Shown: positions 4,360-21,109 of the stretch, in pieces
Layout of the letters: every line of letters starts with the position of its first letter
How positions within the stretch are numbered: position 1 is the stretch's first letter
DNA from: Candidatus Omnitrophota bacterium
GTDB lineage: Bacteria; Omnitrophota; Gorgyraeia; Tantalellales; Tantalellaceae
DNA: 64,000 nucleotides
Direction: 5' to 3'
NCBI GenBank assembly: GCA_028715965.1
Contig: JAQUQS010000004.1
Span: 61,963-125,962 of the forward strand
The notes under the pieces: generated by a model
Seen by the model: only the letters and a program-made list of their open reading frames with translations
Told to the model about the DNA's origin: nothing
Databases searched by the model: none
Made by a program: the position numbers and the translations under genes

Positions 4360-7300
4360 ATGAAGATGACGGGACTGCTGAAGAGAACGGTGAGCGTACT
4401 TGTGGTGTTCAGTTTTTTGAACGCTCAGGTGGCGTATTCTCTCCCACAGGACGTTGAGGTGGTGGAAGGCGCGGCGGATGTTAACATAGAAGGCGCGACG
4501 ATGACGATAAACGCCGACGCCGGCACTATCCTGAATTATTCCTCGTTCGACCTTGCCGAGGGGGAGTCAGTGATAATAAACCTGCCGGGGATAGACGCGG
4601 ATATACTTAACCGTGTTATCGGCGCCGGCGCGTCGAACATAGCGGGGGCCATCTCATGTAACGGGCTTTTCATACTCGTGAACACTAGCGGTATATATCT
4701 CGCGTCGACGGCGAATATCGACGTTGGCAGTCTGGTGCTTTCCACGCGGGATATCACTAACTCTGATTTTGTTAACGGGAAGTATTTCTTCCAGAAGATC
4801 TCGGAGGAAGCGCTGGATACGCTCCTTAAGAACGCGGGCACGATAAACGTGCGTGAAGGCGGGTTCGGCGTCCTTATAGCGGGAGCGATAGAGAACTCGG
4901 GTATGATCGTGGCGCCTATGGGGCGTATACACCTGGCCGCGGGAGACGCGGTGACACTCGCGCTTTCGAGTGACGGGCTTATAAGTGTCGCGATAGACGA
5001 GAAGGTGGCGTCGACGATACATGATATGGACGGGAACCCGATAACCGACCAGATAACGAATACCGGTTCGATCATAGCCGACGGCGGGGTAGTGGCTATA
5101 AGCGCCGAGTCGCTCACGGACATATTCAGGAACGCTATAAATCTTGATGGTATAGTGCAGGCGGATACGATGAGTTCTACTGCTGGCGAGATAAGTATAA
5201 CCTCCTCGAGTGATATAACCCTCGGGGGTGGGATATCAGCCGTAGGGGGCATGATAGGAGTGATCTCGGAGGAAGGGTCGATAAGAGCCGAGGAGACATC
5301 GGAGATGACGGCGCAGGACGTATACGTGGAGGCCCAGAGGGACATATCTCTTGAGGGAACGATAGAGACGATGGAAGGTGGGCTTGTCGATCTCCACGCC
5401 CTTAACGGGTCGATGTACTCACATGGTTCCATAATAGCGCCTGAGGGGGAGATAAATGTGTGCGCGGCGTATGACCTTGACCTCGGGGGGTTCTACAAGG
5501 CGAGCCGCATGGTGTTCGACCCTGAGGAAGTGAACATAACGAGCGACTGGACGGGATCAGGGGATACGACGTTCTGGGCGACGGGGAACATAAATGTGCA
5601 GGCTAACATGACGCTGGAGGAAGGTAGCTTTTATTTCTATGCCGATTCCACCGATGCCAGCGGCACATATGACGACGGTTCGGGTACGTTCACGCAAAGC
5701 TCCAGCTCAACTATAACCGCTGATTATGATATATCCATAGACGGCTCCGGGAGCGTATCGGTGGGCGGAATAGTGTCTACTAGCGGTAGTCTTTATGTGG
5801 GGAATGTTACGGGGGATCATACGAATTCTTATGTAGCGGTTGTGAGTGACCTGAATGTTGCCGAAGATATATCATTAAGCTCATCGGGTGGTATCGGTGT
5901 ATATACCGGCAATACCCTGCAGGCCAACAATATGGACATAAACGCTGACATGGACGGTAATGGTACCGGCTCGTTCTCCATGTTTTCCGGAACGGCTTTG
6001 ACGCTTACAGGCGGAGACCTTTCAATAAGCGCGGGGGAGAATAGTACTTTGGAGGATATCTCCGGGGTCGATCTTTTTACGATAGGATCGACCACCGCGG
6101 CAGGGATAAGTTTTACGTGTGACGCGGCGAACACATTCAGCGTGGATACGTTCAAGACACTTGGCGACGGCTCCACGACTTTTGTGAGGGCGGTCGGTGA
6201 TGGGACCAGTATCCCGCGGATGGTATACGATATAACACAGCTTCAGGCGATGCAGGATAACCTCAGTTGGGATTACCAACTTGCCAACAATATAGACGCG
6301 TCGGCGACTGCCGGCTGGAATTCAGGTGAAGGTTTCGTTCCTGTCGGGGATGATGTGTCGAAATTCACGGGCACATTTGATGGGGGGGGTAAAGTGGTCT
6401 CGGGACTTTTTGTGGACACCACACAGTCTTATACCGGCCTTTTTGGATATGTTTCCGGCGCTACATTATCTGACGTCGGGCTAGAAGATATCTCCATAAC
6501 TGCTACTGTGTCGACCGGGTATGCCTATGTGGGCGGCTTATCCGGATATGCCCAGGATACGCTAGTAACTAACGTATATACAACCGGTTCTGTTGATGCT
6601 ATCAGACCAGGTGGGGTTGCGTTTGGCGGTGGGTTAATAGGTTGCAACGAGGCCAGCGCGTTAGGGCAAGAGGCGAATATAACGAGTTCATATTCTTTGG
6701 CTGATGTGTCAGTGAACGCTCACTCTGGTTATGCGGGTGGGTTGATAGCCCAGAATTCCGCGAACGGTGGCGGGTCGGCGGATATCGCGGATTGTTATGC
6801 GACGGGCTCGGTTTCGATGACAGCTTCATCGTTTTATGCTATGGCGGGAGGGTTGGTCGGACAGAATGTGGCGTATGCCTTTGAAGGAGGACCATCGCTT
6901 CCATGTGCCAACATAACGGGTAGTTATGCTACGGGCGAGGTCCAGGCATCTTCAGGCGGAACGGGTGATGTATGCGCGGGAGGGTTAATAGGGTATAACA
7001 CGACCACTGAAGATAATGCGCTCATAACGGATTCGTACGCCACGGGAAATGCTACCGCTTCAGGAGGTACTAGTACTTACGCGGGAGGGCTCATTGCGTA
7101 TAATGACGCGATCTCAAATGGGGACGCGACCATTACAAGGTCGTACGCTACGGGAGACGCGTCGGCTACAGGGGCGGGAACGACATACGCTGGTGGCCTG
7201 GTCGGGTATATGGACGCGGCTATAATGTCCACGGCGGATGCCGTGGATTCTTTTGCTCTGGGAACGGCCACCGCAACGGGCGGCTCGACCAATTATGTTG

Positions 7301-10300
7301 GTGGGCTGGGAGGGTATATTGATATCGATAGGGATGTCTCTACCAGCAGGTGGTATAACGCTTCGAATACTGATGGTGTCGGTTCACTTGCCGATGGGGA
7401 TACGTTGAAAGAAATAGCCGAGTATTTCACTGACGGCAGCTCAGAGATATATACAAACTGGGATTTCACGGTCGATGGGACCGGGGCGGGTTCGGGAACG
7501 TGGATCATGGCGGGTCTGCCGCACCTCCAGATGGAATGGACGGACACCATAACGACCCTGGAAGAGCTGCAGATGATCCTGCTGGACTATGACGTGTCAT
7601 ATACCCTTGCGAATGACATTGACGCGGCGGCGACGACGGGCTGGAATTGGAACAGCACACGTGGCGTGTATGAGGGGTTCAAGCCATTGACGCTTTTCTC
7701 CGCGACATTTGACGGTTCGGGGTATGAGATATCCGGACTTAACATTGACCGTACCGATACCAATATAGGGATGTTCGGAGTGGTCTTTGCCAGTACGATC
7801 CAGGATCTTTCCCTTTCTTCGGCCAGCATAACGCACAGTGACGCCGTAAGTTCTTATAATCTTGGGGGTGTGGCGGGGTTGGCATATAGCGCTTATCTCA
7901 ACGACATATCGTTCTCGGGAACAGTTTCTGGCTCTACCAGTTCAGGTGACGCGTTTATCGGAGGTCTAACTGGATATATGAACGCCGGGGGCGTAAGCGG
8001 GATCAGTACTGCGGGGACCGTAACCGGGGCATCGAGCCTAGGCAAATGCTATGTGGGAGGGGTGATAGGGCAGTTATATACATCGGCCGCGGGGACCATC
8101 GAGGTAACGCTTTCCGATTCTTCTGCCGATGTCTCCGCGGATTCTGTGGGAGGATATAATTTCGTGGGAGGGCTTATCGGGTCCATAGAGCTGGCTGATT
8201 TCAACCTGGGAAGCGTTTGTAACGTTACTGATTCATACGCCACGGGGGACGTTTCCGGTAATACCACATTCACCCATGTTCTCGCCGGGGGACTTATAGG
8301 CAGGCTGTATATCGCGTACAATGCCGATGTTAACGTGGAAGATTGTTACGCCACAGGTGATGTTTCAGCTACGGGAACACAGCAGGCCCGTGCCGGGGGG
8401 TTGATGGGGCAATTTTCCTCAAATGGCGCTGAATCATACGTAACAATGAACAACTGCTACGCTACGGGAGATGTTACGGCGGTGGCCGGACTTACCGATG
8501 AGTATCCCGCTATGGCGGGTGGGCTGATAGGCTTGGTCCGGGCCGACGCGGACGGGACGACCATTATCAATAACTCTTTCGCAACGGGGACCGCTTCGGC
8601 CACGGGAGCCAGGCCGCGTGAATGCGGATTGGTAGGATGGGATGCCGGGGGAGAATACAATGATTGCCTGTGGTTTAACTCCACAAATATACAGGGGATG
8701 TACTTCGAGACACCTGACTCATATGACGGTACGGCGCTGAAGGCCGCCAGTCTTCCGGACCTTTTCGACGCGGATAGCGATCTTTTCTCTACATGGGATC
8801 TTACCGCGGACGGTACCGGCGGACAATGGGTCATACAAAGCAGGGCCGCTCCCCCCGATTTTTACAGGGAATACAACGTATGGACGGGCGGTGGAACGAC
8901 CAATAATTGGTCGGATGCCGCTAACTGGAGCGCCTTAGCCGCACCATCGATCTTTAGCAAAGTACTTTTGAGTTCCGTTAGCACGAAAAGTGTCACATGG
9001 GATTCTGATATCACCGTGGCAAAAATGCATATAGATGCTTCGTACACGGGACAATTGACACAGGGTGACGGGTACGAGCTTACCGCCACGGACGTTTATT
9101 ACCAGGGCGGTGGTACCGTGCGGACATCGGGAACGGACCTTTCTGTCGAGGGAGGTACTTTTGTGCAGGACGGAGGAAGCATCACGCTGGCCAGTGGCGG
9201 GGATATCTACCTGGATAGCGCCGGGTATATGGAGCTTTATGACGTCTCCTGCGGGGACGAAAGCACTATATACTTAGGTTCAAGGGAAGCCCCGAGCTCG
9301 GTAGTCGTGACCGGGACGATAAGCACGTTATATCCCGGTGGGTCCCAAAGCGGTCTTGAGATATATTCCGATGGCGGGATAAGTGTCGAAGGCGCGGTGG
9401 GCGGTTCAACTTATTATTTCGACTCCATCCACCTTTACCTGGACCATGATGATAACTCCGCGCTCAGCAATATACACGGAAGTTTTTACGCTGACCTGGT
9501 ATATGTACTCGCGCAGAACAATATTGTGGTGGACGGCACACTGGCCAATGACGCGGGAGCTCTTTACGTTGGGCAGCCGGGATATACCCCGGATTCTATA
9601 ACCCAGGACGGGAGAGTGCGGGCCGCTACTTATGTGGGAATGTATGCTAACGTGGACATAAACATGTACGATGAACTGTCCTCTAACGCTAGCATGTGGA
9701 TAATGGCCGATTATGACGATAACGGGTCAGGGGCCTTCCGGCAGGTAAGCGGCAGTATAGTTTCATATGGCGACCTATCCATAGATGGTTCCGGGGAGAT
9801 GGTCCTGGGTTATGTTTATCTGGGAGATAGCGCGGACATGACCATAGGAGAATATCGCACTCCGGATATCGTAACGATCGATATTGGTGTGGGCGGTGCC
9901 GCCGGAGGCGGGGACATCTCTATATATTCGAACGGAGATATCAACCTGGGCGGGGATATAGGTTCCGGTTCTACGGTATTCAATAACGTCAGGTTCTACC
10001 CGGACTATGACTCAAATGCCGGGATGAGTACCGTGGGAGGAAATGTATACGCGGATTATTTTTATATCGAGACGGATTCACCGCTGTCCCTTACTGAGAC
10101 CAATGTCTATGGTGGAGGACTTTATGTGGGGGCGTTGGGCAGGGCTCCGATTTCCGTGTCGACCTTGGAGCCTTTATATGGGTTCTATGACATCGATATA
10201 TATTCCGACGGAGATATCCTTATCGGGGACGATATATATGGATATGAAGTTGAGCTGTTCGCGGATTATGATGGCAATGGCACGGGAAGTTTCACCCAGA

Positions 10301-12675
10301 CCGGGGGGATAATCGAGTCATACGGGGATATAGTGATAGACGGTGTAGGGGATATGGATTTGGGCGCCATTACGATAAATGACGGGAGCGATATAATAAT
10401 CGGGTCTTCCAGAAAGCCGAGCTCCGTTACGTTGAACGGGGTGATAACGGGTATCAACGACCCATATCTGGAGATATGTACCAGCGGGAACATATTGCAG
10501 AACGCGGATATCGGAGCGGAAGGCCTGGCGTTCGGTTCCGTTAGGTTCTATATGGATGATGATATGGCCAATGGATACGGCGGATTTATCGCCAATAGCG
10601 GGACTATCTACGCGGATAATGTCGTTCTAGAGGCCCCGGGAGATATGGAATTGGGCGGTATAAGTGTATATGGCGGCGATCTATGGACTTACGGAGATCA
10701 TATTCCCAGCAGCCTTACTTTGACGGGTGATGTAAGTGTCGGGTACGGGGATATATATATAAGCACCCTGGGAAGCTATGACCAGTCCTCATCAGTGGTT
10801 TCCACGACGGGTTCGGGATCGATAAGCATTACGTCCACTGGGACGTCGTATCTTAACGATATTAACGGGGCTGAAGGGATACTTCTTCTGGCCAACAGCG
10901 GCCAAAGCGCGGTTTATAACGCGTCGGATTCGATGTTCAACATTACCGGCGGTATCGGGATATCAAGTAACGTAACTCTTAACGGCCAATCATCGGATAT
11001 CAGGCTCTCGGGAGCTTGGACCAATAGTGGCATATTTAACGCGGGTACATCCATTGTTACTTTCAATGGGGCCGGTACAGGGGCCATTTACGGGTCGAAC
11101 ACTTTTTATGATCTCAAGTGCGTTACTCCAGGCAAGACGTTGAGGTTCGCGGCGGGACGAACCCAGGTAGTATCGGGGGCATTGACGCTTGGCGGGACAG
11201 AAGCTAATAAGGTGATCCTTTCCAGTACTTCCGATGGGACCCAATGGCATATAGACGCGAGAGGGAGCATGTCTATAGCTAATGTTTCGGTAAAAGATTC
11301 GTTCAACGATAAAGGTCTCTATATCGACCCGGCCGGTTCTATTGATAGAGGGGGTAATTCGTACTGGTTCACGCCCTCGGTGCCACAGGATGATCCGGTC
11401 GACAATGACAATAATGTGCCGGGAGAAGGTAGCGAGACACTGGATGAAACCGTTTTGTTGGATGAGGCCCCGGGAGACAACGATATAGGGGACCAGGATA
11501 TGGGGGACGTCGTGAACACCGGACAGGAGACGTCGGGAGATGAAACTAGCATCGAGAACGCGGGTGATGATATGGCCGGCGAGACAGGGGGAGAAGAGGA
11601 TGACCCTGAGCCCACGGTCATGGCCGCTTCCACCTCGGTCGAAGATGGAAGTAGTGATGGCGGCACCTCGACCGATGGGTCCACGGATGAGGATAATGAC
11701 GAAAATAGCGGTGGGACAGATGACGGTTCGGATGATATCTCTGATGAGGACGCCGGCGGGACGATCGTGGATGACGGCGAGGACGAAGAGGGGGACAGTG
11801 GCTCAAAGAAGAAAAAGAGCTCCGGGAATGCGCAGAAGTTGAGCGTTTCAGGAGAGGAAGAAGATGATGCTGAGGGCGCGTCGGCCGGGACTGGCGTAGG
11901 TTCCGAAGAAGATAAAGAGAATAAAAAAGAGAAGACGGAGCGAGGTCCGATGGATCGGCAGAACGTTATTGATGCGTTGTCCGCCAGAGGGTTTACATGG
12001 AATCCTTCGACCGGGACATTCGAAAAAGGGTTCCAACCTGGCGAGTATCACACAAAAGTATTCGTGTTCGAGGGAGAGGTCCTGGTGAATACGTTCAAGG
12101 GCGTAGCGCTTGACCCGTCAAATCTCACGATACTTACTAACGGACAACATATCAGTATTGGTGGAGTTTTTGATGGAGAAAAAGAACTGCTTGCCGGGGA
12201 TGATGGCGTAGAAATCCGGGGTCAGTTGCCTGAACTTGGTGGAGAAGACGGTGAACTCTCGGATATAGTCGGGCGTACGGGCAAGATCACCGCTATAAGC
12301 GGAAAAGTCGATATCATAAAGAAAGCGGGGCAAGAGAACGTTTCGGCACAAATAGGCATGACCCTTGAGGAGGGGGATGTATTGGTGACTGATACGGATA
12401 GCGAGGCGACCATTGAGCTTGCCGGTAAAAAGGGCAAAACAGCCGCGGAAGTTGACCTGTCGGAAAATACCCAGATCATGGTCGATGAGCTTAGTCTTGT
12501 CCCAGATAAGGGTACGGAAGATACCTTGCTGGATATTGCCGTGGGGAAGATACTTGTTAAGGTCGAAAGCCTAAAGGACAGTGGGGGGTCCACTTTTGAG
12601 ATCCAGACACCTACCTCCATCGTAGCGGTAAGAGGGACGGTTTTTACGGTGGAAGTAAGCCCATCCAAAGAATAA
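4360..12675 (+). CDS. two-partner secretion exoprotein TpsA-1 (2771 aa): signal peptide, TPS/haemagglutination-activity domain, GLUG-type repeats, DYDxDGxG repeats, acidic D/E-rich linker, FecR-like C-terminal domain
   Basis: N-terminus (signal peptide; ..ILNYSSFDLAEGESVIINLPG..ILNRVIGAGASNIAGAISCNGLFILVNTSGIY..) matches the FhaB/ShlA-type TPS domain. Central region has reiterated GGLIGYN..SYATGDV blocks (GLUG motif). C-terminus ..VAVRGTVFTVEV fits the FecR domain pattern. A cognate TpsB gene lies downstream. Confidence 0.85.
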   Translation: MKMTGLLKRTVSVLVVFSFLNAQVAYSLPQDVEVVEGAADVNIEGATMTINADAGTILNYSSFDLAEGESVIINLPGIDADILNRVIGAGASNIAGAISCNGLFILVNTSGIYLASTANIDVGSLVLSTRDITNSDFVNGKYFFQKISEEALDTLLKNAGTINVREGGFGVLIAGAIENSGMIVAPMGRIHLAAGDAVTLALSSDGLISVAIDEKVASTIHDMDGNPITDQITNTGSIIADGGVVAISAESLTDIFRNAINLDGIVQADTMSSTAGEISITSSSDITLGGGISAVGGMIGVISEEGSIRAEETSEMTAQDVYVEAQRDISLEGTIETMEGGLVDLHALNGSMYSHGSIIAPEGEINVCAAYDLDLGGFYKASRMVFDPEEVNITSDWTGSGDTTFWATGNINVQANMTLEEGSFYFYADSTDASGTYDDGSGTFTQSSSSTITADYDISIDGSGSVSVGGIVSTSGSLYVGNVTGDHTNSYVAVVSDLNVAEDISLSSSGGIGVYTGNTLQANNMDINADMDGNGTGSFSMFSGTALTLTGGDLSISAGENSTLEDISGVDLFTIGSTTAAGISFTCDAANTFSVDTFKTLGDGSTTFVRAVGDGTSIPRMVYDITQLQAMQDNLSWDYQLANNIDASATAGWNSGEGFVPVGDDVSKFTGTFDGGGKVVSGLFVDTTQSYTGLFGYVSGATLSDVGLEDISITATVSTGYAYVGGLSGYAQDTLVTNVYTTGSVDAIRPGGVAFGGGLIGCNEASALGQEANITSSYSLADVSVNAHSGYAGGLIAQNSANGGGSADIADCYATGSVSMTASSFYAMAGGLVGQNVAYAFEGGPSLPCANITGSYATGEVQASSGGTGDVCAGGLIGYNTTTEDNALITDSYATGNATASGGTSTYAGGLIAYNDAISNGDATITRSYATGDASATGAGTTYAGGLVGYMDAAIMSTADAVDSFALGTATATGGSTNYVGGLGGYIDIDRDVSTSRWYNASNTDGVGSLADGDTLKEIAEYFTDGSSEIYTNWDFTVDGTGAGSGTWIMAGLPHLQMEWTDTITTLEELQMILLDYDVSYTLANDIDAAATTGWNWNSTRGVYEGFKPLTLFSATFDGSGYEISGLNIDRTDTNIGMFGVVFASTIQDLSLSSASITHSDAVSSYNLGGVAGLAYSAYLNDISFSGTVSGSTSSGDAFIGGLTGYMNAGGVSGISTAGTVTGASSLGKCYVGGVIGQLYTSAAGTIEVTLSDSSADVSADSVGGYNFVGGLIGSIELADFNLGSVCNVTDSYATGDVSGNTTFTHVLAGGLIGRLYIAYNADVNVEDCYATGDVSATGTQQARAGGLMGQFSSNGAESYVTMNNCYATGDVTAVAGLTDEYPAMAGGLIGLVRADADGTTIINNSFATGTASATGARPRECGLVGWDAGGEYNDCLWFNSTNIQGMYFETPDSYDGTALKAASLPDLFDADSDLFSTWDLTADGTGGQWVIQSRAAPPDFYREYNVWTGGGTTNNWSDAANWSALAAPSIFSKVLLSSVSTKSVTWDSDITVAKMHIDASYTGQLTQGDGYELTATDVYYQGGGTVRTSGTDLSVEGGTFVQDGGSITLASGGDIYLDSAGYMELYDVSCGDESTIYLGSREAPSSVVVTGTISTLYPGGSQSGLEIYSDGGISVEGAVGGSTYYFDSIHLYLDHDDNSALSNIHGSFYADLVYVLAQNNIVVDGTLANDAGALYVGQPGYTPDSITQDGRVRAATYVGMYANVDINMYDELSSNASMWIMADYDDNGSGAFRQVSGSIVSYGDLSIDGSGEMVLGYVYLGDSADMTIGEYRTPDIVTIDIGVGGAAGGGDISIYSNGDINLGGDIGSGSTVFNNVRFYPDYDSNAGMSTVGGNVYADYFYIETDSPLSLTETNVYGGGLYVGALGRAPISVSTLEPLYGFYDIDIYSDGDILIGDDIYGYEVELFADYDGNGTGSFTQTGGIIESYGDIVIDGVGDMDLGAITINDGSDIIIGSSRKPSSVTLNGVITGINDPYLEICTSGNILQNADIGAEGLAFGSVRFYMDDDMANGYGGFIANSGTIYADNVVLEAPGDMELGGISVYGGDLWTYGDHIPSSLTLTGDVSVGYGDIYISTLGSYDQSSSVVSTTGSGSISITSTGTSYLNDINGAEGILLLANSGQSAVYNASDSMFNITGGIGISSNVTLNGQSSDIRLSGAWTNSGIFNAGTSIVTFNGAGTGAIYGSNTFYDLKCVTPGKTLRFAAGRTQVVSGALTLGGTEANKVILSSTSDGTQWHIDARGSMSIANVSVKDSFNDKGLYIDPAGSIDRGGNSYWFTPSVPQDDPVDNDNNVPGEGSETLDETVLLDEAPGDNDIGDQDMGDVVNTGQETSGDETSIENAGDDMAGETGGEEDDPEPTVMAASTSVEDGSSDGGTSTDGSTDEDNDENSGGTDDGSDDISDEDAGGTIVDDGEDEEGDSGSKKKKSSGNAQKLSVSGEEEDDAEGASAGTGVGSEEDKENKKEKTERGPMDRQNVIDALSARGFTWNPSTGTFEKGFQPGEYHTKVFVFEGEVLVNTFKGVALDPSNLTILTNGQHISIGGVFDGEKELLAGDDGVEIRGQLPELGGEDGELSDIVGRTGKITAISGKVDIIKKAGQENVSAQIGMTLEEGDVLVTDTDSEATIELAGKKGKTAAEVDLSENTQIMVDELSLVPDKGTEDTLLDIAVGKILVKVESLKDSGGSTFEIQTPTSIVAVRGTVFTVEVSPSKE

Positions 12676-12750: not shown

Positions 12751-12778
12751 TTGTATCGTATTAATAGTATGATATACT
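12751..12778 (+). promoter_or_regulatory. sigma70-like promoter TTGTAT-N16-TATACT for the tpsA-2 leader
   Basis: Same architecture as the promoter at 4094-4121; sequence diverges upstream of it and becomes identical downstream. Confidence 0.4.
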
Positions 12779-12819
12779 TAAATTGATACTAAAACCGGTT
12801 CTTTTAAATGGATTTTTTG

Positions 12820-12953: not shown

Positions 12954-13015
12954 TCCCCCGTAGCCAGATAGGATATGAGTAGATAGGCGTAGGAGGATTA
13001 TTTAGGGGCAAAGAG

Positions 13016-16000
13016 ATGAAGATGACGGGACTGCTGAAGAGAACGGTGAGCGTACTTGTGGTGTTCAGTTTTTTGAACGCTCAGGTGGCGTATTCTCTCC
13101 CACAGGACGTTGAGGTGGTGGAAGGCGCGGCGGATGTTAACATAGAAGGCGCGACGATGACGATAAACGCCGACGCCGGCACTATCCTGAATTATTCCTC
13201 GTTCGACCTTGCCGAGGGGGAGTCAGTGATAATAAACCTGCCGGGGATAGACGCGGATATACTTAACCGTGTTATCGGCGCCGGCGCGTCGAACATAGCG
13301 GGGGCCATCTCATGTAACGGGCTTTTCATACTCGTGAACACTAGCGGTATATATCTCGCGTCGACGGCGAATATCGACGTTGGCAGTCTGGTGCTTTCCA
13401 CGCGGGATATCACTAACTCTGATTTTGTTAACGGGAAGTATTTCTTCCAGAAGATCTCGGAGGAAGCGCTGGATACGCTCCTTAAGAACGCGGGCACGAT
13501 AAACGTGCGTGAAGGCGGGTTCGGCGTCCTTATAGCGGGAGCGATAGAGAACTCGGGTATGATCGTGGCGCCTATGGGGCGTATACACCTGGCCGCGGGA
13601 GACGCGGTGACACTCGCGCTTTCGAGTGACGGGCTTATAAGTGTCGCGATAGACGAGAAGGTGGCGTCGACGATACATGATATGGACGGGAACCCGATAA
13701 CCGACCAGATAACGAATACCGGTTCGATCATAGCCGACGGCGGGGTAGTGGCTATAAGCGCCGAGTCGCTCACGGACATATTCAGGAACGCTATAAATCT
13801 TGATGGTATAGTGCAGGCGGATACGATGAGTTCTACTGCTGGCGAGATAAGTATAACCTCCTCGAGTGATATAACCCTCGGGGGTGGGATATCAGCCGTA
13901 GGGGGCATGATAGGAGTGATCTCGGAGGAAGGGTCGATAAGAGCCGAGGAGACATCGGAGATGACGGCGCAGGACGTATACGTGGAGGCCCAGAGGGACA
14001 TATCTCTTGAGGGAACGATAGAGACGATGGAAGGTGGGCTTGTCGATCTCCACGCCCTTAACGGGTCGATGTACTCACATGGTTCCATAATAGCGCCTGA
14101 GGGGGAGATAAATGTGTGCGCGGCGTATGACCTTGACCTCGGGGGGTTCTACAAGGCGAGCCGCATGGTGTTCGACCCTGAGGAAGTGAACATAACGAGC
14201 GACTGGACGGGATCAGGGGATACGACGTTCTGGGCGACGGGGAACATAAATGTGCAGGCTAACATGACGCTGGAGGAAGGTAGCTTTTATTTCTATGCCG
14301 ATTCCACCGATGCCAGCGGCACATATGACGACGGTTCGGGTACGTTCACGCAAAGCTCCAGCTCAACTATAACCGCTGATTATGATATATCCATAGACGG
14401 CTCCGGGAGCGTATCGGTGGGCGGTGTTGTCTCCAATATGGGAAGCATACATATCGGACAAGTCACAGGCAACCATGATGTGTCGTATATAGGCATGCTT
14501 GGCTCATTGTATGCGAGTAATGAGGTAACGCTTTATTCCGATGGTGATATACACCAAGGTGGGGACATGACAGGTGAGGTCATATATCTGTATCCAGATC
14601 ATGACTCCGATGGCAGCGGCCAGTTCCAGACAAGTTTATCGTATGTCATCAATGGGATGGATCTCTACCTTGACCAGAGCACGGACATAGACATAAGTAA
14701 TTTTAACGCGAATGTGGAATATTTTTATATCGGTAACAACGGGATCACGCCCAGTTCCGTTACGATCGGTGGCGAGAATCATGTGTATGGGACACTCGAC
14801 ATTACTTCCAACGGTGATATCGTCCAGAATGGGACGATCTATTCTGAGGCCGGATACGGGCTTTACCTGCAACCCGATTATGATAACGACGGGAACGGCC
14901 AGTTTATACAAAATTCAGGAAGCATTTGTAACTTTTATGAGATGAGCCTGTATCAGGGTACCAATATCACGCTTGATTATTACATGGACACCTACAATGT
15001 TTACGGGATCAACATATATGGCGAAGGTGAGGTTAACCTCAATGGCGGCATATATGCGACAAGCGATTTGTACGTGTACGCAAATGACGGTATTTCTTTG
15101 GGCGGTCCGCTACATTTCGATTATTACCTTGAGCTAAACGCCGATTATGACAACGATGGGTACGGCAGCTTGGTCGCGAACGGGAACAGCATATCCCCAG
15201 TAAGTTATTTTGATACGGCTAACATAACTACTGCAGGCGATCTTAACGTATCTGACATCGAAAGCCTGTTTTCCGGCGATGTTCCGGCAACTTCTTTGAC
15301 TTTGCGTTCGACCGCAGGCAATATCACACTCGACCAGTATTATGATCCCGAGTTCTTATATTCGCTGCAACTTATAGCGGCTGATGATATCAACTTGAAT
15401 GAGTGGATAGCGTTATCATACGGCAATGTTGGCCTGATCGCCGATTATGACGGAGACGGAGACGGTAATTTCAATTTCTCATCGGCAGGGATAAGCGCGG
15501 GCTCCGTTACTTTCAGTAAGAACAGTGATTTCAGTATCACATCGGATCTTATCTCCGACATAGACGCCAGCAATATCACATTCACGGCCGGCGGGGATTC
15601 CGACCTCTCGGTTGATGCCAGCCTATCATGCAGCGGGGCATTAAATCTACAGGCGGATGGGGATATTTCCATTAATTATGGGGTCAGCACAGGGACCACA
15701 TTTTCGGTCGTTGCCGATTACGACACGGATAATTCCGGGAACGTTATCTGGTATAGCGGGGTGTCCGCGAGTATGGGGACAGGAGGGACGCTGAGATACC
15801 AGCAAGCCGATAGTTTCGCGTATTCGGATGTAACAAGCCGTGTTTATGGACAAACGACAGGAGGGGTCACGTTGAGGTCTACGAACGGTTCGGTGACCGT
15901 GGACCAGGCGATCACGCTCAGGACCGGCATCATCGATCTAAGGGCGGATGAGGACCTGCTTATAAATTCAAATATATCCACCACGAGCTCATCAACTATG

Positions 16001-19000
16001 TATCTTTACGCGGACGCGGAGAACAACGGTTCAGGGGGCTTTATGCAATCGGGGTCGGCTTCTATAACTTCAGGAGGGACCGCCCAGATCGCGCTACGCG
16101 CGGCAGGCACGGGAAGTTTATTGGGCGATATAACGGCCGGCCGGTTATATCTTTACGCGCAGTCAGGTGGCGCCACATATGCGCTCCAGGACGGGTGTAA
16201 TGTGGACCTGAATTATTACACTTCTTCCTATGGTCTTTATGTCGCCAGTAATGCTATATTTAACGGTGGAAATAATACGACCATATCTACGGGAGGAGAC
16301 TGGTGGGTGGACGGCACGTTCAATGGGCAGGGATCTACGGCCATATTGGATGGTACGTATTCCGGCACGAAGGATATACGGATGGACGCGGGCTCATTCA
16401 ATAACCTTACGATAAACGCGAGCGGGACATATTCCCCATATACTTCCACCACGCCTACGGTAGTTGCGGGCGGTGACCTCAGCATCACTGCGGGCATATT
16501 GAGCATGACCACGAACGATCTCGTGGTAGGCGGAGACCTTCTTATCGACGGAGGCGTACTTATCGCCAATGGCGCGGGTGTGGACATTGATGTCGATGGG
16601 GATGTCTTGATCCGCGCGGGGGACTTTTTCGCCCCGACGGGCCTGGACGATGTTTCGTTCACGGTAGGGGGCGGATTTGAAGTATCGGGTGCGGGTGATT
16701 ATTATAACGGCAATGGAAGGGTCGTATTCGATTCATCCGATATAGGGAACGATATCATCCTTACAACCTCCGGGTCCTATTTTTTCAATGACGTAAAGTT
16801 CAGCGGCGGAGGTGAATGGACTCTCACCGGCCTTATGCTGGCCTCCGGTGATCTGTATATGTATGACGGGACGCTCGTCGCCGGAGGACTGATAATAGCC
16901 GCGGATACATTAGCAATGGATGGCGGGAATATCACAAGTGATGGAAATGATGTCGAGATCATCGCTTCGACTTTTACGCAGACAGCGGGGGCGATAACGA
17001 CAACATCAGAAGGGGATGTGAAGATCAGTTCTACCGCTATGCCCGGGGCATTTACTGTCGGGGAGATAAATTCCGATGGTGGTGTTTTCATCGGAGAGAC
17101 CAACGCTCCGGTCACGGTCAGCCAGACATCAGGGACATCAATAACAGCGGTGGGAGATAGAGGCATAGAGATCAGCGCGTCAGGCGATATTACACTGCGG
17201 CAGGTCAATTCCGGAAGTTACGACACGACGATCACGTCAACGGCGGGGTCCATCCTCGACGGGCTTACGGGAGAAAGCGCGAACATAACGGCGGCAGCGG
17301 CTACACTCACGGCGGCTACGGGTATAGGTGTAACTGGAAGCGAGGACCTTGACCTTGACGTGGCGACGCTTGACGCGTCCGTAACGGGTACGGGTGACAT
17401 TTATATATGGGAGGACAGCGCGATAACATTAAGTGATGTTGATACCAGCGCGGGCAAGATAGATATATCATCAGGGGGAACAATGACCGCGACGGATGTC
17501 GTGGCTGGCGATACGGGAGAAGTGTGGCTGACAACGACGAGCGGGAACATACAGGCTGGCGTGATCACGGCTTCCGGGAGCAAGGTAGTTCTCGCAGCCG
17601 CGGGTGCGATAACGGACACGAACGGTGCGAGCGTTAATATAACCGGGAGCACGGTGGACCTTGATGCCGCGACAGGCATAAGTGTGGATACTTCGGTGAA
17701 TAATATCACGGCGGACGTGTCCGGGGTCGGGAATGTCGACATAAGCGAGACAGATGATGTGAACATTAACGGTGTCTCCTCATATGAGGGGGATATCATA
17801 TTGACAAGCGGCGGCGTTATGACCGTTGCCGATGACATATCCGCCACAGGCTTCGGGAATATATCCATGACCGCCGACGGGATGAACCAGACCGGTGGCA
17901 GTATATACGCGCCCGCGGGCGAGATATGGATCGATGGCGCGGGTGATATTGTCCTGGGGGCCATAGAGGCGGCTGGGAATCTGACCATCGGGTCCAATGT
18001 GGCGCCGGATTCCGTGACCTTTAACGAAGATATCCACGCGTATAATAGCATAGACGTTATATCCAACGGGAACATTGACCAGAACGCGGACATATACAGT
18101 GACGGATCGTATGATATCTATCTGCGTCCCGACTATGACGGGGACGGTGCTGGGCAGTATTCGGGCAACGGGCATTCGCTTCTGGTGAACGCGCTTTATA
18201 TCGACCAATCGACCGATATGGTGCTTAACGGGTTTACTCTCCAGAATGGTTATGTGTTAGCCGGCACCCTTAGTGCGCCATCATCAATTACCGTGAACGG
18301 CGATATAAATGGATATTACGCGTTTTACGCGGAAAGTAACGGGAATATCGACGTGAACGCGAATATATACACGCAATATGACCTGTATCTCGACGCGGCC
18401 GGTGATATAAACATAAATTCACTTTTGAGTTCAGGGGACGTGATATCTATAGGGGGATCCATATCGCCATCCTCTGTGACAATAACATCCGCTGGTTCCA
18501 TATATTCGGGGAATACCGTTACAATATCATCCGGCGGTGATCTGGTTTTCGATAACCTGTCAGGGGCGATAGACTCGTATTTCCTGACCGGTAACGCCGG
18601 AAGCGACATAACGGTGGCGAACACCCTCAATATCGGTGTCGGATTATCCCTTGACGCCACGGGCAATATAGATGCCGAGGGCTCGATCGGTGGTATGTCT
18701 GAGACGCTTACCCTTAACGCGGGCGGGTATATTGATATAGCGGGGACCGCTACAGGGATAACCGCTGTAACGATAGACGCTTCGGGTGATGTGACCCTGG
18801 GGGGCATTGACTGCCAGGGAGACCTCGCGATAGGCGGGACGACTTCCCCGGCGAATGTTCACCTTAACGGTAGTAGCACGGTTACGGGTACTAACACGGC
18901 CCAGATCAGTTCGGCCGGGAATGTTGCCTTCAATGGCGATCTTGTCACGATATGTGGTATCACGGTCAGCGCGGTGAATAATGTTACGATAGCTAATAGT

Positions 19001-21109
19001 ATTACCGGAGTTAATTCGGATATTTCACTGTACGCGGGGGGGAATATCAGCCATGCCTCCGGCACGGTATCTACGGAAACGAGCGGGGACATATATATGA
19101 ACGGCGGCGGGGATCTCGCTTTGCGCAATATCAACAGCGCTGGGAGTGTATACGTGGGTGATCCTGAAGCTCCTTTATCTATCACGCAAGGAACGGGAAC
19201 TGTGATCAACGCGGGTGGCGATATCAGCGTTGTGTCCGCGGGTGACGTAACGCTTGCGGAGTTGATCTCCGGGTCCGGGAGCGTTTCGGTGACCTCGTCC
19301 GGCGGGGGGATATACGATGGACTCGGCACGACCGACGCGAATATTACGGCCGGAAGCCTTACTCTTAGCGCGGCTACGGGAATAGGCATCCTGGGTGGAG
19401 AAGATGTCGATATCTCCGCGGATTCTCTCTTCGCTGAGGTCACGGGTCCGGGCGACATACATATAAATGAATTCGGGAGCATAACGATAAGCTCAACAAG
19501 CACTTATGACGGCTCGATCGATATCACATCTGAAGAGAAGATGACGGTATCGGATATTGCCGCGGGCGGTGCTGGCGATATTTCGCTTTGTACGGGGTCA
19601 GGAGACCTGGAGCTCGCGGGGAATATAACGGCGAACGCGGGGAATGTTTCTCTTGCCGCGGGCGGCGCGTTTACGCATATATCCGGAGTCATACATACTG
19701 ATACGACGGGAGATGTGAGCATTAGTTCGGTTGGCGCGTCATCACTTGGGGACATAACGAGCGCGGGGGCGCTGAACCTGGATACCGGAAGCGCAGCTAC
19801 TTATGGTTCGACCGGCACAATTGATACGGTGGGAGCCGTGGTGATAAGCAGCGGGGTCAATGTGGACGCCAATTCCTCGGTATGGACGGTAGGAGGGGAC
19901 TGGACGAATAACGGTACGTTCAATGGAGACACTTCGAGTGTAACGCTTGACGGCGCAAGTGACGCCGCGGTGACGGGCCCTAACACCTTCGGTGACCTTG
20001 CGATAGAGACGGAGGGTAAGACCGTAACGTTCGAAGCGGGCGAGACCCAGACGGTTACCGGCGAGTTCAGCGCGCAGGGTTCCTCGGGGGTCGGCAACCT
20101 GGTGACGCTCAGGAGTTCGTCCGCCGGCAGCGCGTGGGGGCTGGACATACAGGGCGCGGCAAGCGTCAATTTCGCGGACGTCAAGGATTCGGCGAATGTC
20201 GGGACCGAGATCACGGCCACGAATTCCAAGGACAGAGGAGGCAACACCGGCTGGAGTTTTGAGTCATCGCTTCTTACATGGCTGGGAGTTAGCTCGACCA
20301 GCTGGGATGACGCTTCCAACTGGGACCTGGGATACGTGCCGAACGTAAGTGACAGCGTGGAGATAGTATCCGCGGGTAATTACGCGGCTTTAGTTTCGGA
20401 TGTCGAGATAAACTCTCTTACGATAGACTCGGGCGGCCGGATGGACGCGGGTTCTTACAGGATAACGGTTTCCGGTGACTGGACGAACGCGGGTACGTTC
20501 AACGCGGGTACGGGCACGGTCGTTTTCGATCCGATGACGGGGACATCGCGGATAAGCGGGTCGACTATGTTCAATGACCTCACCTGCGTAACTCCTGGAT
20601 CCACGCTGGTATTCGGTTCGGGGACGACGCAGACGGTGAACGGCAGGCTTGACATATCAGGTTCGGTATCAAGCCGAATAAACCTGATGGGTTCGGTAGC
20701 GGGAAGTTATTGGCATATAAACCCTAAAGGGGCGATAAGCGTGACGAACGTTACAGTGAGGGATTCATACAATGACAAAGGCGTATTCGTGGATCCAGCG
20801 GGGTCGGTGGATAACGGTAAGAACCTTTTCTGGTTCACGCCTCCGGTTAACGATATACCGGACGAGACGGATAACGTGGGTCAGAACAAGAACAATATGA
20901 TCCTTGAAGGGAAAGGAAATGACTCTTTCGACCCCAGGGGTGTGGCGAATGGTCCTGCCGGGACAGGCATATTCATGGAGGACTATTTCGTCAACACGGG
21001 TTTTGGCATGGTATCCTCGGACGGGTCGCCATTTTTTATGTATCATGGTCTTTCTGACCCCGACATATATGGGCGCCGCGAACTCCCTGATCGGGACATG
21101 GTGGTTTAG
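13016..21109 (+). CDS. two-partner secretion exoprotein TpsA-2 (2697 aa): first 470 aa identical to TpsA-1 (TPS domain), then an unrelated beta-helix-like repetitive passenger with DYDxDGxGQF repeats and two copies of a conserved C-terminal module
   Basis: N-terminal 470 aa, and the antisense ORFs, are identical to TpsA-1. Divergence starts at ..SVSVGG(I/V)VS... Low-complexity G/T/S/D/N-rich repeats are typical of TpsA passengers. Confidence 0.85.
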   Translation: MKMTGLLKRTVSVLVVFSFLNAQVAYSLPQDVEVVEGAADVNIEGATMTINADAGTILNYSSFDLAEGESVIINLPGIDADILNRVIGAGASNIAGAISCNGLFILVNTSGIYLASTANIDVGSLVLSTRDITNSDFVNGKYFFQKISEEALDTLLKNAGTINVREGGFGVLIAGAIENSGMIVAPMGRIHLAAGDAVTLALSSDGLISVAIDEKVASTIHDMDGNPITDQITNTGSIIADGGVVAISAESLTDIFRNAINLDGIVQADTMSSTAGEISITSSSDITLGGGISAVGGMIGVISEEGSIRAEETSEMTAQDVYVEAQRDISLEGTIETMEGGLVDLHALNGSMYSHGSIIAPEGEINVCAAYDLDLGGFYKASRMVFDPEEVNITSDWTGSGDTTFWATGNINVQANMTLEEGSFYFYADSTDASGTYDDGSGTFTQSSSSTITADYDISIDGSGSVSVGGVVSNMGSIHIGQVTGNHDVSYIGMLGSLYASNEVTLYSDGDIHQGGDMTGEVIYLYPDHDSDGSGQFQTSLSYVINGMDLYLDQSTDIDISNFNANVEYFYIGNNGITPSSVTIGGENHVYGTLDITSNGDIVQNGTIYSEAGYGLYLQPDYDNDGNGQFIQNSGSICNFYEMSLYQGTNITLDYYMDTYNVYGINIYGEGEVNLNGGIYATSDLYVYANDGISLGGPLHFDYYLELNADYDNDGYGSLVANGNSISPVSYFDTANITTAGDLNVSDIESLFSGDVPATSLTLRSTAGNITLDQYYDPEFLYSLQLIAADDINLNEWIALSYGNVGLIADYDGDGDGNFNFSSAGISAGSVTFSKNSDFSITSDLISDIDASNITFTAGGDSDLSVDASLSCSGALNLQADGDISINYGVSTGTTFSVVADYDTDNSGNVIWYSGVSASMGTGGTLRYQQADSFAYSDVTSRVYGQTTGGVTLRSTNGSVTVDQAITLRTGIIDLRADEDLLINSNISTTSSSTMYLYADAENNGSGGFMQSGSASITSGGTAQIALRAAGTGSLLGDITAGRLYLYAQSGGATYALQDGCNVDLNYYTSSYGLYVASNAIFNGGNNTTISTGGDWWVDGTFNGQGSTAILDGTYSGTKDIRMDAGSFNNLTINASGTYSPYTSTTPTVVAGGDLSITAGILSMTTNDLVVGGDLLIDGGVLIANGAGVDIDVDGDVLIRAGDFFAPTGLDDVSFTVGGGFEVSGAGDYYNGNGRVVFDSSDIGNDIILTTSGSYFFNDVKFSGGGEWTLTGLMLASGDLYMYDGTLVAGGLIIAADTLAMDGGNITSDGNDVEIIASTFTQTAGAITTTSEGDVKISSTAMPGAFTVGEINSDGGVFIGETNAPVTVSQTSGTSITAVGDRGIEISASGDITLRQVNSGSYDTTITSTAGSILDGLTGESANITAAAATLTAATGIGVTGSEDLDLDVATLDASVTGTGDIYIWEDSAITLSDVDTSAGKIDISSGGTMTATDVVAGDTGEVWLTTTSGNIQAGVITASGSKVVLAAAGAITDTNGASVNITGSTVDLDAATGISVDTSVNNITADVSGVGNVDISETDDVNINGVSSYEGDIILTSGGVMTVADDISATGFGNISMTADGMNQTGGSIYAPAGEIWIDGAGDIVLGAIEAAGNLTIGSNVAPDSVTFNEDIHAYNSIDVISNGNIDQNADIYSDGSYDIYLRPDYDGDGAGQYSGNGHSLLVNALYIDQSTDMVLNGFTLQNGYVLAGTLSAPSSITVNGDINGYYAFYAESNGNIDVNANIYTQYDLYLDAAGDININSLLSSGDVISIGGSISPSSVTITSAGSIYSGNTVTISSGGDLVFDNLSGAIDSYFLTGNAGSDITVANTLNIGVGLSLDATGNIDAEGSIGGMSETLTLNAGGYIDIAGTATGITAVTIDASGDVTLGGIDCQGDLAIGGTTSPANVHLNGSSTVTGTNTAQISSAGNVAFNGDLVTICGITVSAVNNVTIANSITGVNSDISLYAGGNISHASGTVSTETSGDIYMNGGGDLALRNINSAGSVYVGDPEAPLSITQGTGTVINAGGDISVVSAGDVTLAELISGSGSVSVTSSGGGIYDGLGTTDANITAGSLTLSAATGIGILGGEDVDISADSLFAEVTGPGDIHINEFGSITISSTSTYDGSIDITSEEKMTVSDIAAGGAGDISLCTGSGDLELAGNITANAGNVSLAAGGAFTHISGVIHTDTTGDVSISSVGASSLGDITSAGALNLDTGSAATYGSTGTIDTVGAVVISSGVNVDANSSVWTVGGDWTNNGTFNGDTSSVTLDGASDAAVTGPNTFGDLAIETEGKTVTFEAGETQTVTGEFSAQGSSGVGNLVTLRSSSAGSAWGLDIQGAASVNFADVKDSANVGTEITATNSKDRGGNTGWSFESSLLTWLGVSSTSWDDASNWDLGYVPNVSDSVEIVSAGNYAALVSDVEINSLTIDSGGRMDAGSYRITVSGDWTNAGTFNAGTGTVVFDPMTGTSRISGSTMFNDLTCVTPGSTLVFGSGTTQTVNGRLDISGSVSSRINLMGSVAGSYWHINPKGAISVTNVTVRDSYNDKGVFVDPAGSVDNGKNLFWFTPPVNDIPDETDNVGQNKNNMILEGKGNDSFDPRGVANGPAGTGIFMEDYFVNTGFGMVSSDGSPFFMYHGLSDPDIYGRRELPDRDMVV

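Follow-up and report, generated by a model that had tools for sequence, protein, structure and literature searches.

A Two-Partner Secretion Protein of Omnitrophota with a Putative Circularly Permuted FecR Domain at Its C-Terminus

Introduction

Some TpsA proteins keep their C-terminus in the periplasm, where it tethers or controls the secreted filament; the anchors of HMW1 and HxuA and the FhaB prodomain are examples (PMC5422565). In other bacteria, an envelope protein with a FecR domain is co-encoded with an inner-membrane enzyme bearing CHASE2: NsrA with CyaD1/D2/K in S. meliloti, where the FecR protein is required upstream of the enzyme, a LysM-FecR protein with a CHASE2 histidine kinase in Burkholderia, and a cluster with a CHASE2 adenylate cyclase in Campylobacterota (PMC7529298, PMC13001267, PMC5192318, PMC9239204). 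A FecR-type protein is also functionally tied to two-partner secretion (TPS) in P. aeruginosa, in which PUMA3 (VreA-VreI-VreR) controls the PdtA/PdtB system (PMC2729926; PMC5422565). The best-understood link between a giant adhesin and c-di-GMP, the Lap system, runs inside-out.

Architecture of the TpsA-1 locus

The window, i.e. the whole 64-kb stretch of Omnitrophota DNA that was analysed, contains the following features.

4360..12675, + strand: TpsA-1, 2771 aa (ORF list, translation)
4459-5229, + strand: TPS domain of TpsA-1, aa 34-290
10978..11376, + strand: end-of-shaft module, aa 2207-2339, ending ..NSYWFTP (blastp)
11377..11943, + strand: acidic low-complexity linker, 189 aa (composition)
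11944..12021, + strand: short spacer, aa 2529-2554 (26 aa), predicted helix (AF2)
12022..12177, + strand: tail motif, aa 2555-2606 (52 aa), ..PGEYHTKVFVFEGEVLVNTFKG..LTILTNGQ.. (custom HMM, hhalign)
12178..12279, + strand: second acidic linker, aa 2607-2640 (34 aa), 29% D/E
12280..12672, + strand: short FecR domain, aa 2641-2771, the N-terminal part of the canonical fold
13016..21109, + strand: TpsA-2, paralogue of TpsA-1, 2697 aa
21106..22995, - strand: TpsB transporter, POTRA_2 and ShlB/FhaC barrel (Pfam)

TpsA-1 is built in the order signal peptide, TPS domain, GLUG-repeat region with a beta-helix-like shaft, and C-terminal module. Its translated N-terminus is hydrophobic (MKMTGLLKRTVSVLVVFSFLNAQVAYS) and precedes the TPS domain, so that both the Sec signal peptide and the TPS domain of a TpsA are present. 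PF05860 scored 85 bits against a cut-off of 33.5 (Pfam) and TIGR01901 52 bits (NCBIfam), with further matches to Glug and FecR in Pfam and to adhes_NPXG in NCBIfam; the database entry P0002 is this window protein itself and no separate orthologue. A cognate TpsB (ShlB 114.5 bits, POTRA_2 57.6 bits, Pfam) is encoded in the same locus, convergent with both tpsA genes, which places TpsA-1 in type Vb. The paralogue TpsA-2 is identical to TpsA-1 over aa 1-470. The end-of-shaft module is conserved among TpsA-1, TpsA-2 and the TpsAs of another locus, L085, with 45% identity to TpsA-2 aa 2476-2639 and 36-43% identity to the L085 proteins (blastp). Past this module the sequences become wholly unlike, and TpsA-2 closes with a different tail of 93 aa that has neither the tail motif nor a FecR domain.

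The initial annotation had described a long acidic linker, of about 185 aa at about 11390-11950, followed by a FecR-like domain. Composition and an above-threshold Pfam match to FecR bear this out, the linker being 189 aa long with 33% D/E and a net charge of about -52. A Ca2+-binding repeat was considered for this tract; as visual inspection showed no repeat unit and Pfam returned no match, it was treated as a compositionally biased linker. Between it and the tail motif lies the 26-aa spacer, which matched no family and whose helix falls at AF2 model residues 5-13 (pLDDT 58-75). The second acidic linker, with AF2 pLDDT below 50, sits where the intergenic spacer and signal peptide of a stand-alone FecR gene would be, and ..GRTGKI.. 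of TpsA-1 aligns with the mature N-terminus ..KRTGKI.. of the stand-alone homologues.

A FecR fold in two pieces

The final 135 aa had originally been read as the FecR domain. A FecR-type beta domain does occupy aa 2641-2771, and the 52-aa tail motif upstream of it had been missed. PF04773, with a gathering threshold of 24 bits, scored 33.5 when run on the whole protein and 35-37 when run on the C-terminus, covering model positions 2-83 of 97 only. The conserved RGT lies at nt 12631-12639 and the protein stops 11 aa past the GT, so that the post-GT strands (positions about 84-97 onward) are missing there; the homologous segment is found upstream, at aa 2555-2606. TpsA-1 ends no more than 10 aa after the GT strand, as the short-FecR subfamily does, in which RGT is at least 90% conserved. 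It shares 45-49% identity with the stand-alone members and ends in a matching way (..AVRGTVFTVEVSPSKE and stop, against ..AVRGTVFSVEVEALE and stop).

The tail motif matches the C-terminal strands of the canonical FecR domain, those following the GT site (hhalign against post-GT segments, 92%, E 6.8e-7), and the short FecR is the part through the GT strand. In unfused relatives the motif forms the extreme C-terminus of the TpsA, and its custom HMM matched the C-termini of TpsA proteins or giant ORFs in at least 15 loci, the non-seed matches including L005, L023, L024, L028, L036 and L041; its match to TpsA-1 aa 2555-2606 (E 5.7e-21) is partly circular, TpsA-1 being one of the nine HMM seeds. 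The AF2 pLDDT of the motif was 78-90 together with the FecR part versus 47-54 alone, and the motif is predicted, judged only from pLDDT and pTM, to pack onto the short FecR domain. Relative to a canonical FecR, the two halves are permuted on one chain.

The AF2 model of the C-terminus has the beta fold of solved FecR-type periplasmic domains, its best match being a periplasmic retention plug; the fold is that of the MpIBP RIN plug (PDB 5IX9). These matches came from fold comparison alone, and PDB sequence searches with the protein or a profile gave none. The LapA-type retention module NF033682 (retention_LapA) scored 18.5 bits on TpsA-1 (E 0.0018), below its cut-off of 50, and matched 23/40 short FecR subfamily members at E <= 0.01, the best at 2e-8. 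By NCBIfam score, the closest FecR domains are those of Leptospira Lsa33, LipL45 and Lsa19, named there as surface adhesins; the 23-50 bits of these models cover the FecR domain only and do not reach their cut-offs of 250-420. Cupin_3 (E 0.04) and DUF7354 gave weak overlaps.

A module shared among Omnitrophota loci

About 63 Omnitrophota loci encode the closest FecR relatives, proteins of 155 aa that have a Sec signal peptide only and no TPS domain. Such a stand-alone gene lies directly upstream of a CHASE2-GGDEF cyclase gene, across a gap of a few nt, in 46 of the 57 loci with enough downstream sequence (63 loci in total), and it adjoins TpsB or TpsA genes in 33 of 63. In most relatives tpsA and the FecR gene are separate neighbours, 55-290 nt apart. 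In the unfused TpsAs the linker at the equivalent position is acidic or Pro-rich and poor in K/R, as judged by the composition of the 80 aa preceding the tail motif. The module in related genomes consists of TpsB, a TpsA whose end is made up of linker and tail motif, a short FecR and a CHASE2-GGDEF cyclase; with its 189-aa acidic linker, spacer and tail motif, TpsA-1 has the same linker and tail. The TpsA/short FecR/CHASE2-GGDEF module is conserved and apparently undescribed, and a limited literature search brought up no paper tying TPS to FecR-domain or CHASE2 proteins. The analysis was confined to loci other than the Hydrogenophaga and Burkholderiales loci L069-L084. Neither CHASE2 nor a stand-alone FecR is encoded in the 64-kb window, profile search included, so the signalling step discussed below is unsupported for this organism.

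Judged from sequence, TpsA-1 is a TpsA joined in frame to the FecR partner that would otherwise lie downstream of it, because stand-alone FecRs adjoin TpsA/TpsB genes and the unfused TpsAs share the tail motif. The combination had been called atypical, and rightly so: among the best 150 representatives of 1.84 billion proteins, one other full-length TPS-domain protein ends in this FecR type. L085, on a JGI contig, is an independent TpsA-FecR fusion with 32% identity to TpsA-1, encoded directly upstream of CHASE2-GGDEF. The 243-aa C-terminus had one match in a word-indexed homologue search, alignment-based searches returned short FecR proteins only and no further full-length TPS fusions, and other C-terminal fragments share the linker-tail-linker-FecR order. 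Natural fusions in both orders argue for physical contact between the TPS filament and a periplasmic domain of FecR type whose partner is a diguanylate cyclase.

Comparison with described systems

Unlike the FecR-type anti-sigma factors of cell-surface signalling, TpsA-1 lacks a cytoplasmic anti-sigma domain, a transmembrane helix and the STN-binding DUF4974 (Pfam, NCBIfam); the initial annotation had named DUF4974 beside FecR as a profile to search, and it matched neither the protein nor its C-terminus. The outer-membrane partner is a TonB-dependent transducer in those systems and a TPS system here, and their output is an ECF sigma factor whereas the likely output partner of the TpsA-1-type module is the CHASE2-GGDEF cyclase. 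PUMA3 differs in that an anti-sigma/sigma pair controls the transcription of TPS genes; in TpsA-1 the FecR part is physically fused with, or complemented by, the TpsA. In the modules of S. meliloti, Burkholderia and Campylobacterota, FecR is carried by an outer-membrane barrel or a LysM protein with no TPS filament, and the output is cAMP or a histidine kinase instead of c-di-GMP; in the Omnitrophota module the FecR fold would be divided between a TpsA and a small periplasmic protein.

In LapA-like RTX adhesins the plug is N-terminal and secretion is of type I, whereas in TpsA-1 the putative plug is C-terminal and secretion of type Vb. Pfam found no RTX or T1SS features in TpsA-1, and neither a LapG-type di-alanine site nor LapD/LapG genes turned up. 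Lap signalling runs inside-out, whereas in the TpsA-1-type module the cyclase is presumed to be the receiver. The HMW1/HxuA anchor is a disulfide loop of roughly 20 residues, and TpsA-1 has no cysteine in its last 243 aa; the FhaB prodomain has no sequence similarity to the TpsA-1 C-terminus. No FecR fold or cyclase is connected with either these anchors or the prodomain.

Proposed mechanism and alternatives

The C-terminus of a TpsA arrives at TpsB last. Together with the relatives and the fold match, this order points to a periplasmic location rather than a distal tip, and it is from these that we infer the topology of what is most likely a periplasmic, circularly permuted FecR domain retaining TpsA-1 in TpsB. 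A model is proposed, to which we give somewhat better than even chances, that the C-terminus came from fusion with the next gene and that the resulting periplasmic FecR unit tethers the filament in TpsB and may signal. The gene usually following tpsA in related loci encodes the small Sec-exported short FecR, partner of the CHASE2-GGDEF diguanylate cyclase, and its in-frame fusion would have given rise to TpsA-1. Tail and short FecR would build one complete FecR fold, in trans where they are unfused and in cis in TpsA-1, as a circular permutation across the 34-aa linker. The folded unit of about 20 kDa would form in the periplasm, where the stand-alone homologues have to fold as well, and since it would be too big for the TpsB pore, the acidic linker would stay threaded through TpsB and the filament would be tethered. 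Type Vb secretion would thereby have an equivalent of the LapA/MpIBP retention plug and of the HMW1/HxuA C-terminal anchor. More speculatively, a gene for a CHASE2-GGDEF cyclase may lie elsewhere in the genome, and the FecR unit may signal to its product whether the filament is secreted, loaded or released; the result would be outside-in c-di-GMP signalling by analogy with FecA-FecR-FecI and the NsrA-CHASE2 cyclase. Several observations run against this main explanation: CHASE2 and stand-alone FecR genes are missing from the window, P0075 has no acidic linker, with a basic helical segment in its place, the best Leptospira FecR matches are named surface adhesins, and the retention_LapA score falls short of its cut-off.

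A further reading, possible though rather doubtful, is that the FecR fold is deliberately split between the filament tail and a small periplasmic protein bound to CHASE2-GGDEF, so that docking and withdrawal of the tail switch c-di-GMP synthesis. The filament would supply its extreme C-terminal tail, kept in the periplasm on the acidic linker threaded through TpsB; docking would complete the FecR domain and withdrawal would break it, driven by secretion, by pulling force on the filament or by proteolytic loss of the tail. Type Vb secretion would then underlie a sensor of touch or tethering that works across the envelope, and TpsA-1 would be its circularly permuted, covalently closed form.

Translocation might instead take in the whole protein together with its FecR domain, which would then sit on a flexible acidic stalk and serve as an adhesin or as a head that binds a ligand. 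The Leptospira surface adhesins and lipoproteins, Lsa33 at 50 bits being the best NCBIfam match, are in keeping with this, as is the C-terminal position of the functional domain in many TpsA proteins, which is general knowledge (PMC5422565). It is nevertheless unlikely: the stand-alone homologues have a Sec signal peptide without a TPS domain and are encoded back-to-back with an inner-membrane protein bearing a periplasmic CHASE2 sensor, the tail motif complementing the domain is the final segment of unfused TpsAs, and the top fold match is a periplasmic plug. The initial suggestion that the tip carries a binding or effector module, or that the tract is a Ca2+/surface-binding spacer, is likewise not favoured by the comparative evidence, because the nearest relatives are Sec-exported stand-alone proteins whose partner is a diguanylate cyclase with a periplasmic CHASE2 sensor, and because of that same fold match. 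An intramolecular chaperone or secretion checkpoint resembling the FhaB prodomain would place the unit in the periplasm without signalling; tail and FecR would hold the C-terminus there during secretion, and later proteolysis, possibly at or near the GT site, would free the filament. The FhaB prodomain has the same position, and its C-terminal part undergoes regulated degradation (PMC8263021); moreover, RGT is strongly conserved in the subfamily, GT self-cleavage is known in FoxR, and the window has no CHASE2 gene. This too seems improbable, as it leaves unexplained both the near-constant adjacency of stand-alone FecR to CHASE2-GGDEF and the cyclase gene beside the L085 fusion, and GT cleavage in TpsA-1 would remove only 12 residues. 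Finally, as tpsA and FecR are separate adjacent genes in most relatives, a frameshift or chimeric join could have created the fusion during assembly or gene calling. We consider such an artefact highly improbable, since the junction is an acidic linker without a hydrophobic stretch and not a read-through of intergenic sequence and signal peptide, and both the distant L085 fusion and the further C-terminal fragments repeat the arrangement.

Implications

If the proposed model is true, the widespread but unexplained pairing of FecR and CHASE2 genes gains a concrete ligand, a protein tail; the retention plug of RTX adhesins proves to be a relative of the FecR domain; and TpsA proteins have a new kind of C-terminal anchor. 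A testable route of outside-in signalling would also be at hand for nanobacteria that are little studied, largely uncultured and often associated with hosts. Annotators should then not take a "FecR domain-containing protein" beside CHASE2 and TpsB genes as a sign of iron or anti-sigma signalling.

Domain layout of TpsA-1 and its acidic linker

The feature of interest lies at the 3' end of an 8.3-kb open reading frame encoding TpsA-1, which is followed by a second tpsA paralogue and by the convergent gene for their outer-membrane transporter, TpsB.

4360-12675, +, TpsA-1, 2771 aa, feature of interest at 3' end
TpsA-1 aa 34-290, TPS secretion domain (Pfam, 85 bits)
TpsA-1, GLUG motifs (Pfam)
TpsA-1 aa 2340-2528 (nt 11377-11943), acidic tract, 189 aa
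TpsA-1 aa 2555-2606, tail motif, 52 aa (..PGEYHTKVFVFEGEVLVNTFKG..LTILTNGQ..), C-terminal to the acidic tract and N-terminal to the FecR domain
TpsA-1 aa 2674-2767, FecR domain (Pfam PF04773)
13016-21109, TpsA-2, downstream of TpsA-1
21106-22995, -, TpsB, POTRA_2 and ShlB domains (Pfam)

The long acidic linker proposed in the initial annotation is real. The tract holds 62 D/E and 10 K/R residues in 189 aa, a D+E fraction of 0.328 versus 0.120 across the rest of TpsA-1, and the next most acidic 189-aa windows of the protein reach at most 0.169. All peptides quoted from the region were found in TpsA-1, whereas the start given for it, 11390, is off the reading frame by one base.

A short FecR domain at the C-terminus

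PF04773 was matched at 33.5 bits by the whole of TpsA-1 and at 35-37 bits by its C-terminus alone (cut-off 24), so that HMMER and Pfam bore out the FecR-type ending that had been recognized by eye; the match covers the model only up to position 83 of 97. For the last 243 aa, AF2 used a 40-sequence alignment and returned the anticipated beta fold (mean pLDDT 80, pTM 0.73), the FecR part being all beta with pLDDT >90 throughout. Foldseek matched 5ix9 at probability 1.0. This structure is the RIN domain, a periplasmic plug too big for TolC that holds an adhesin on the cell (PMC5550230), and it served as template for the LapA retention module (bioRxiv 10.1101/198937). The NCBIfam model retention_LapA was matched weakly by the TpsA-1 domain (E 0.0018) and by 23 of 40 subfamily members (best E 2e-8), the E. 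coli FecR model by 4 of 40. Among NCBIfam domain matches the highest scores went to Lsa33, LipL45 and Lsa19, FecR-domain proteins of Leptospira, none of which came near its full-length cut-off. The C-terminal domain of TpsA-1 is a true FecR-superfamily fold of a particular subtype, and the short FecR domain is similar in fold to a periplasmic retention plug. Identity as an anti-sigma factor was rejected because an anti-sigma domain, a transmembrane helix and DUF4974 are all missing from the TpsA-1 FecR domain.

HMMER, run exhaustively over 1.84 billion representative proteins, matched 1970 of them (E up to 1e-3), with the window protein itself on top (P0002, 0 mismatches); the best 150 were analysed together with P0001 from a separate search. 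A signal peptide and a short FecR domain are all that 87 of these 151 contain (about 155 aa). In 98 of the 151 the chain stops no more than 10 residues past the conserved ..VRGT.F.V.V strand, an ending also seen in TpsA-1 (..AVRGTVFTVEVSPSKE) and P0001 (..AVRGTVFSVEVEALE). The combination of TPS and FecR domains, called atypical in the initial annotation, recurred in one further full-length protein among the 151, P0075 (1956 aa; TPS aa 51-287, FecR aa 1861-1953; 32% identity over the matched region). The order linker, motif, linker, FecR is also present in shorter relatives (P0091, P0107, P0110, P0165 and others), possibly the C-terminal pieces of longer proteins, since the ORF of P0165, the case checked, is open up to the contig edge.

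Genomic neighbourhood of stand-alone short FecR proteins

A locus scan limited to a single genome per species gave 80 loci. Candidatus Omnitrophota MAGs account for nearly all of them, some labelled Planctomycetia; distant Hydrogenophaga/Burkholderiales copies ranked lowest. Neighbour classes were assigned by phmmer seeds in the 63 Omnitrophota loci where short FecR is encoded on its own, and the precomputed annotations of L001, L003 and L004 concur with them. A CHASE2 protein directly adjoins the FecR gene in 46 of the 63 (57 have >1.5 kb of downstream sequence), often across gaps of 2-10 nt. Pfam found CHASE2 plus GGDEF in 45 of 45 such neighbours, with RYGGEE invariant. TpsB stands in the flank of 29 loci, mostly divergent upstream, and a TPS-domain gene in 12; one or the other occurs in 33, and CHASE2 together with a TPS component in 23. 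All components (TpsB and/or TpsA, short FecR, CHASE2-GGDEF) are found together within 10-15 kb in L006, L008, L010, L011, L013, L034, L040, L064 and L066 in varying order, which in L064 and L066 is CHASE2-GGDEF, then FecR, then TpsB on a single strand. A hydrophobic signal-peptide region was found in 62 of 65 stand-alone proteins and a lipobox-like site in 6, and the signal peptides are of the ordinary type.

Distant short-FecR members (L069-L084), at 25-33% identity, are encoded by Hydrogenophaga, Polaromonas, Rhodoferax and other Burkholderiales. No CHASE2, TpsB or TPS genes were detected next to them with the phmmer seeds; either their context differs or the neighbours are too divergent for the seeds.

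The tail motif as the probable missing part of the FecR fold

The tail motif, missing from the initial annotation, is conserved in P0075, P0107, P0091 and P0110, with the consensus Y..GkYRT.VIV.EG.V.V.PYDE.G......L..Gq. Unfused TpsAs and giant ORFs directly 5' of short FecR and CHASE2-GGDEF genes have it as their very C-terminus (L005, L009, L010, L011, L013 in two copies, L017, L023, L024, L028, L034, L036, L041); in L010 and L013 tpsA is followed after 55-57 nt by short FecR and after 3 nt more by CHASE2-GGDEF. Because the 80 aa preceding the motif are acidic, K/R-poor and often Pro-rich in most of these proteins (D+E 0.2-0.47), the acidic linker of TpsA-1 is a family trait, P0075 excepted, which has a basic helical stretch there.

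In the unfused loci tpsA with its tail and short FecR are separate genes; TpsA-1 is accordingly a TpsA joined in frame to the partner gene that normally follows it. L085 has a run of three tpsA paralogues, of which the central one is P0075, fused to tail and FecR; CHASE2-GGDEF follows directly, and the locus has no stand-alone FecR. The reverse order is found in proteins of about 350 aa with an N-terminal short FecR and the tail motif near aa 235-295 (L021, 10733-11782; L022, 3798-4862; L054, 4725-5804), encoded 3' of CHASE2-GGDEF, directly in L021 and L054, with a gap of about 115 nt in L022; these may be self-complemented paralogues. The neighbourhood of TpsB, TpsA tail, short FecR and CHASE2-GGDEF is conserved, with fusions in both orders.

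In canonical non-terminal FecR proteins the chain goes on after ..VRGT.F.V.. as ..T.V.VFEG.V.V....G..v..G.., for example in P0215 (zf-HC2 plus FecR; GT-VFTVES..DYTSKVLVFEGRVEVRS..GTVSLTAGQTVS). The tail motif is a homologue of this post-GT part, as shown by three observations: in all 8 canonical proteins, weak tail-HMM matches fell at a constant distance (+1 or +2) from the threonine of GT; 21 tails compared profile to profile with 22 post-GT segments matched at 92% probability (E 6.8e-7, 41 columns); and the AF2 tail strands reached pLDDT 78-90 with the FecR part present, as against 47-54 (mean 49, pTM 0.35) for the tail segment alone at the same three-sequence coverage. The models suggest that the tail packs onto the FecR domain. 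After self-cleavage of FoxR at its GT site, the two halves stay bound to each other and function jointly (PMC11637429). What is seen in Omnitrophota looks like such a split made permanent at the gene level, about 11 residues downstream of GT.

Proposed mechanism and alternatives

A mechanism is proposed in which tail and short FecR together make up a single FecR fold, between separate proteins (in trans) in unfused systems and within one circularly permuted chain (in cis) in TpsA-1. The fold would be assembled in the periplasm, because the stand-alone partner has a Sec signal only and is paired with the periplasmic CHASE2 of an inner-membrane enzyme, and because the TpsA C-terminus reaches TpsB last. 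The TpsB channel is a passage for unfolded chains (review PMC5422565), so that a folded unit of about 20 kDa would be blocked there, leaving the linker in the pore and the filament tethered. Such retention is comparable to the tethering reported for the HMW1/HxuA C-terminal anchor, and would be the two-partner-secretion counterpart of filament tethering by LapA/MpIBP in type I secretion.

Finally, the CHASE2-GGDEF cyclase might sense whether the FecR unit is occupied, so that c-di-GMP signalling would run outside-in. This step is the weakest for the source organism because the 64-kb window has no CHASE2 gene, profile search included. Precedents in kind exist. NsrA of Sinorhizobium reportedly carries FecR domains. 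This outer-membrane protein is needed upstream of CHASE2 cyclases (PMC7529298, PMC13001267), and FecR-domain proteins are encoded next to CHASE2 sensors in Sinorhizobium as well as in Burkholderia (PMC5192318) and Campylobacterota (PMC9239204).

Other readings were weighed against retention. The extracellular adhesive tip of the initial annotation draws its main support from the names of the Leptospira adhesins among the NCBIfam matches, and we regard it as unlikely; that tail and FecR form a prodomain-like checkpoint, clipped off later, seems similarly doubtful. An assembly artefact is very improbable: in alignment, ..GRTGKI.. of TpsA-1 falls on ..KRTGKI.. at the mature N-terminus of stand-alone short FecR proteins, a 34-aa acidic linker occupies the place of intergenic spacer and signal peptide, and fusions arose independently.

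The core functional claims are drawn by comparative inference. The ingredients (FecR fold, CHASE2 pairing, periplasmic TpsA anchors, retention plugs) are already known; what appears to be new is how they are combined, the splitting or permutation of the FecR fold, and the kinship between FecR and the RTX retention module. In the literature searched, no publication joined 'FecR domain' with two-partner secretion or relevantly linked CHASE2 with TPS, and the only FecR-TPS link found was transcriptional, PUMA3 VreR controlling PdtA/PdtB (PMC2729926).

The tpsA paralogues and other genes of the window

A 1653-nt block, 244 nt of upstream sequence plus the first 470 codons, is common to both tpsA genes at 99.8% identity (4116-5768 and 12773-14424). 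Beyond it the passengers are distant until a common end-of-shaft module at 45% identity, which suggests that a cassette of promoter, signal peptide and TPS domain, placed before variable passengers, underwent recent duplication or gene conversion. TpsA-1 aa 630-1500 (about nt 6250-8860) holds two long arrays of GLUG-type repeats (..SYATGDV.A....AGGLIG..) and weakly matches the N-terminal region of IgA1 metalloprotease M26; TpsA-2 has neither, so the paralogues display different passengers. The 93-aa tail of TpsA-2 (20828-21109) is without the FecR-like motif and contains ..YFVNTGFG.., resembling ..FINTGFD.. and ..FDNMGFVG.. in TpsA linkers of L005 (1-1635) and L028 (1-9675); this stretch may be a second short conserved linker element.

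The remainder of the window carries housekeeping genes (e.g. carAB, purF, pyrG, guaA, purL, aconitase) and several HD-GYP/GGDEF proteins. Three c-di-GMP-related genes lie within 11 kb (39542-41119, PAS-GGDEF-HD-GYP; 42561-43568, REC-HD-GYP; 49198-50532, sCache-HD-GYP); c-di-GMP turnover proteins are abundant in the source genome, and none of those in the window has a CHASE2 domain. A third giant ORF (55473-63905, -, 2810 aa), unrelated to the TpsAs and with no Pfam or NCBIfam match, has a hydrophobic, Gly-rich N-terminus of ~420 aa and an HExxH-like motif, HEVAHE. GC skew of the + strand is positive throughout 1-54000, where cumulative skew climbs steadily and genes are nearly all on +, and flattens or reverses from about 54 kb, the site of this giant minus-strand ORF.
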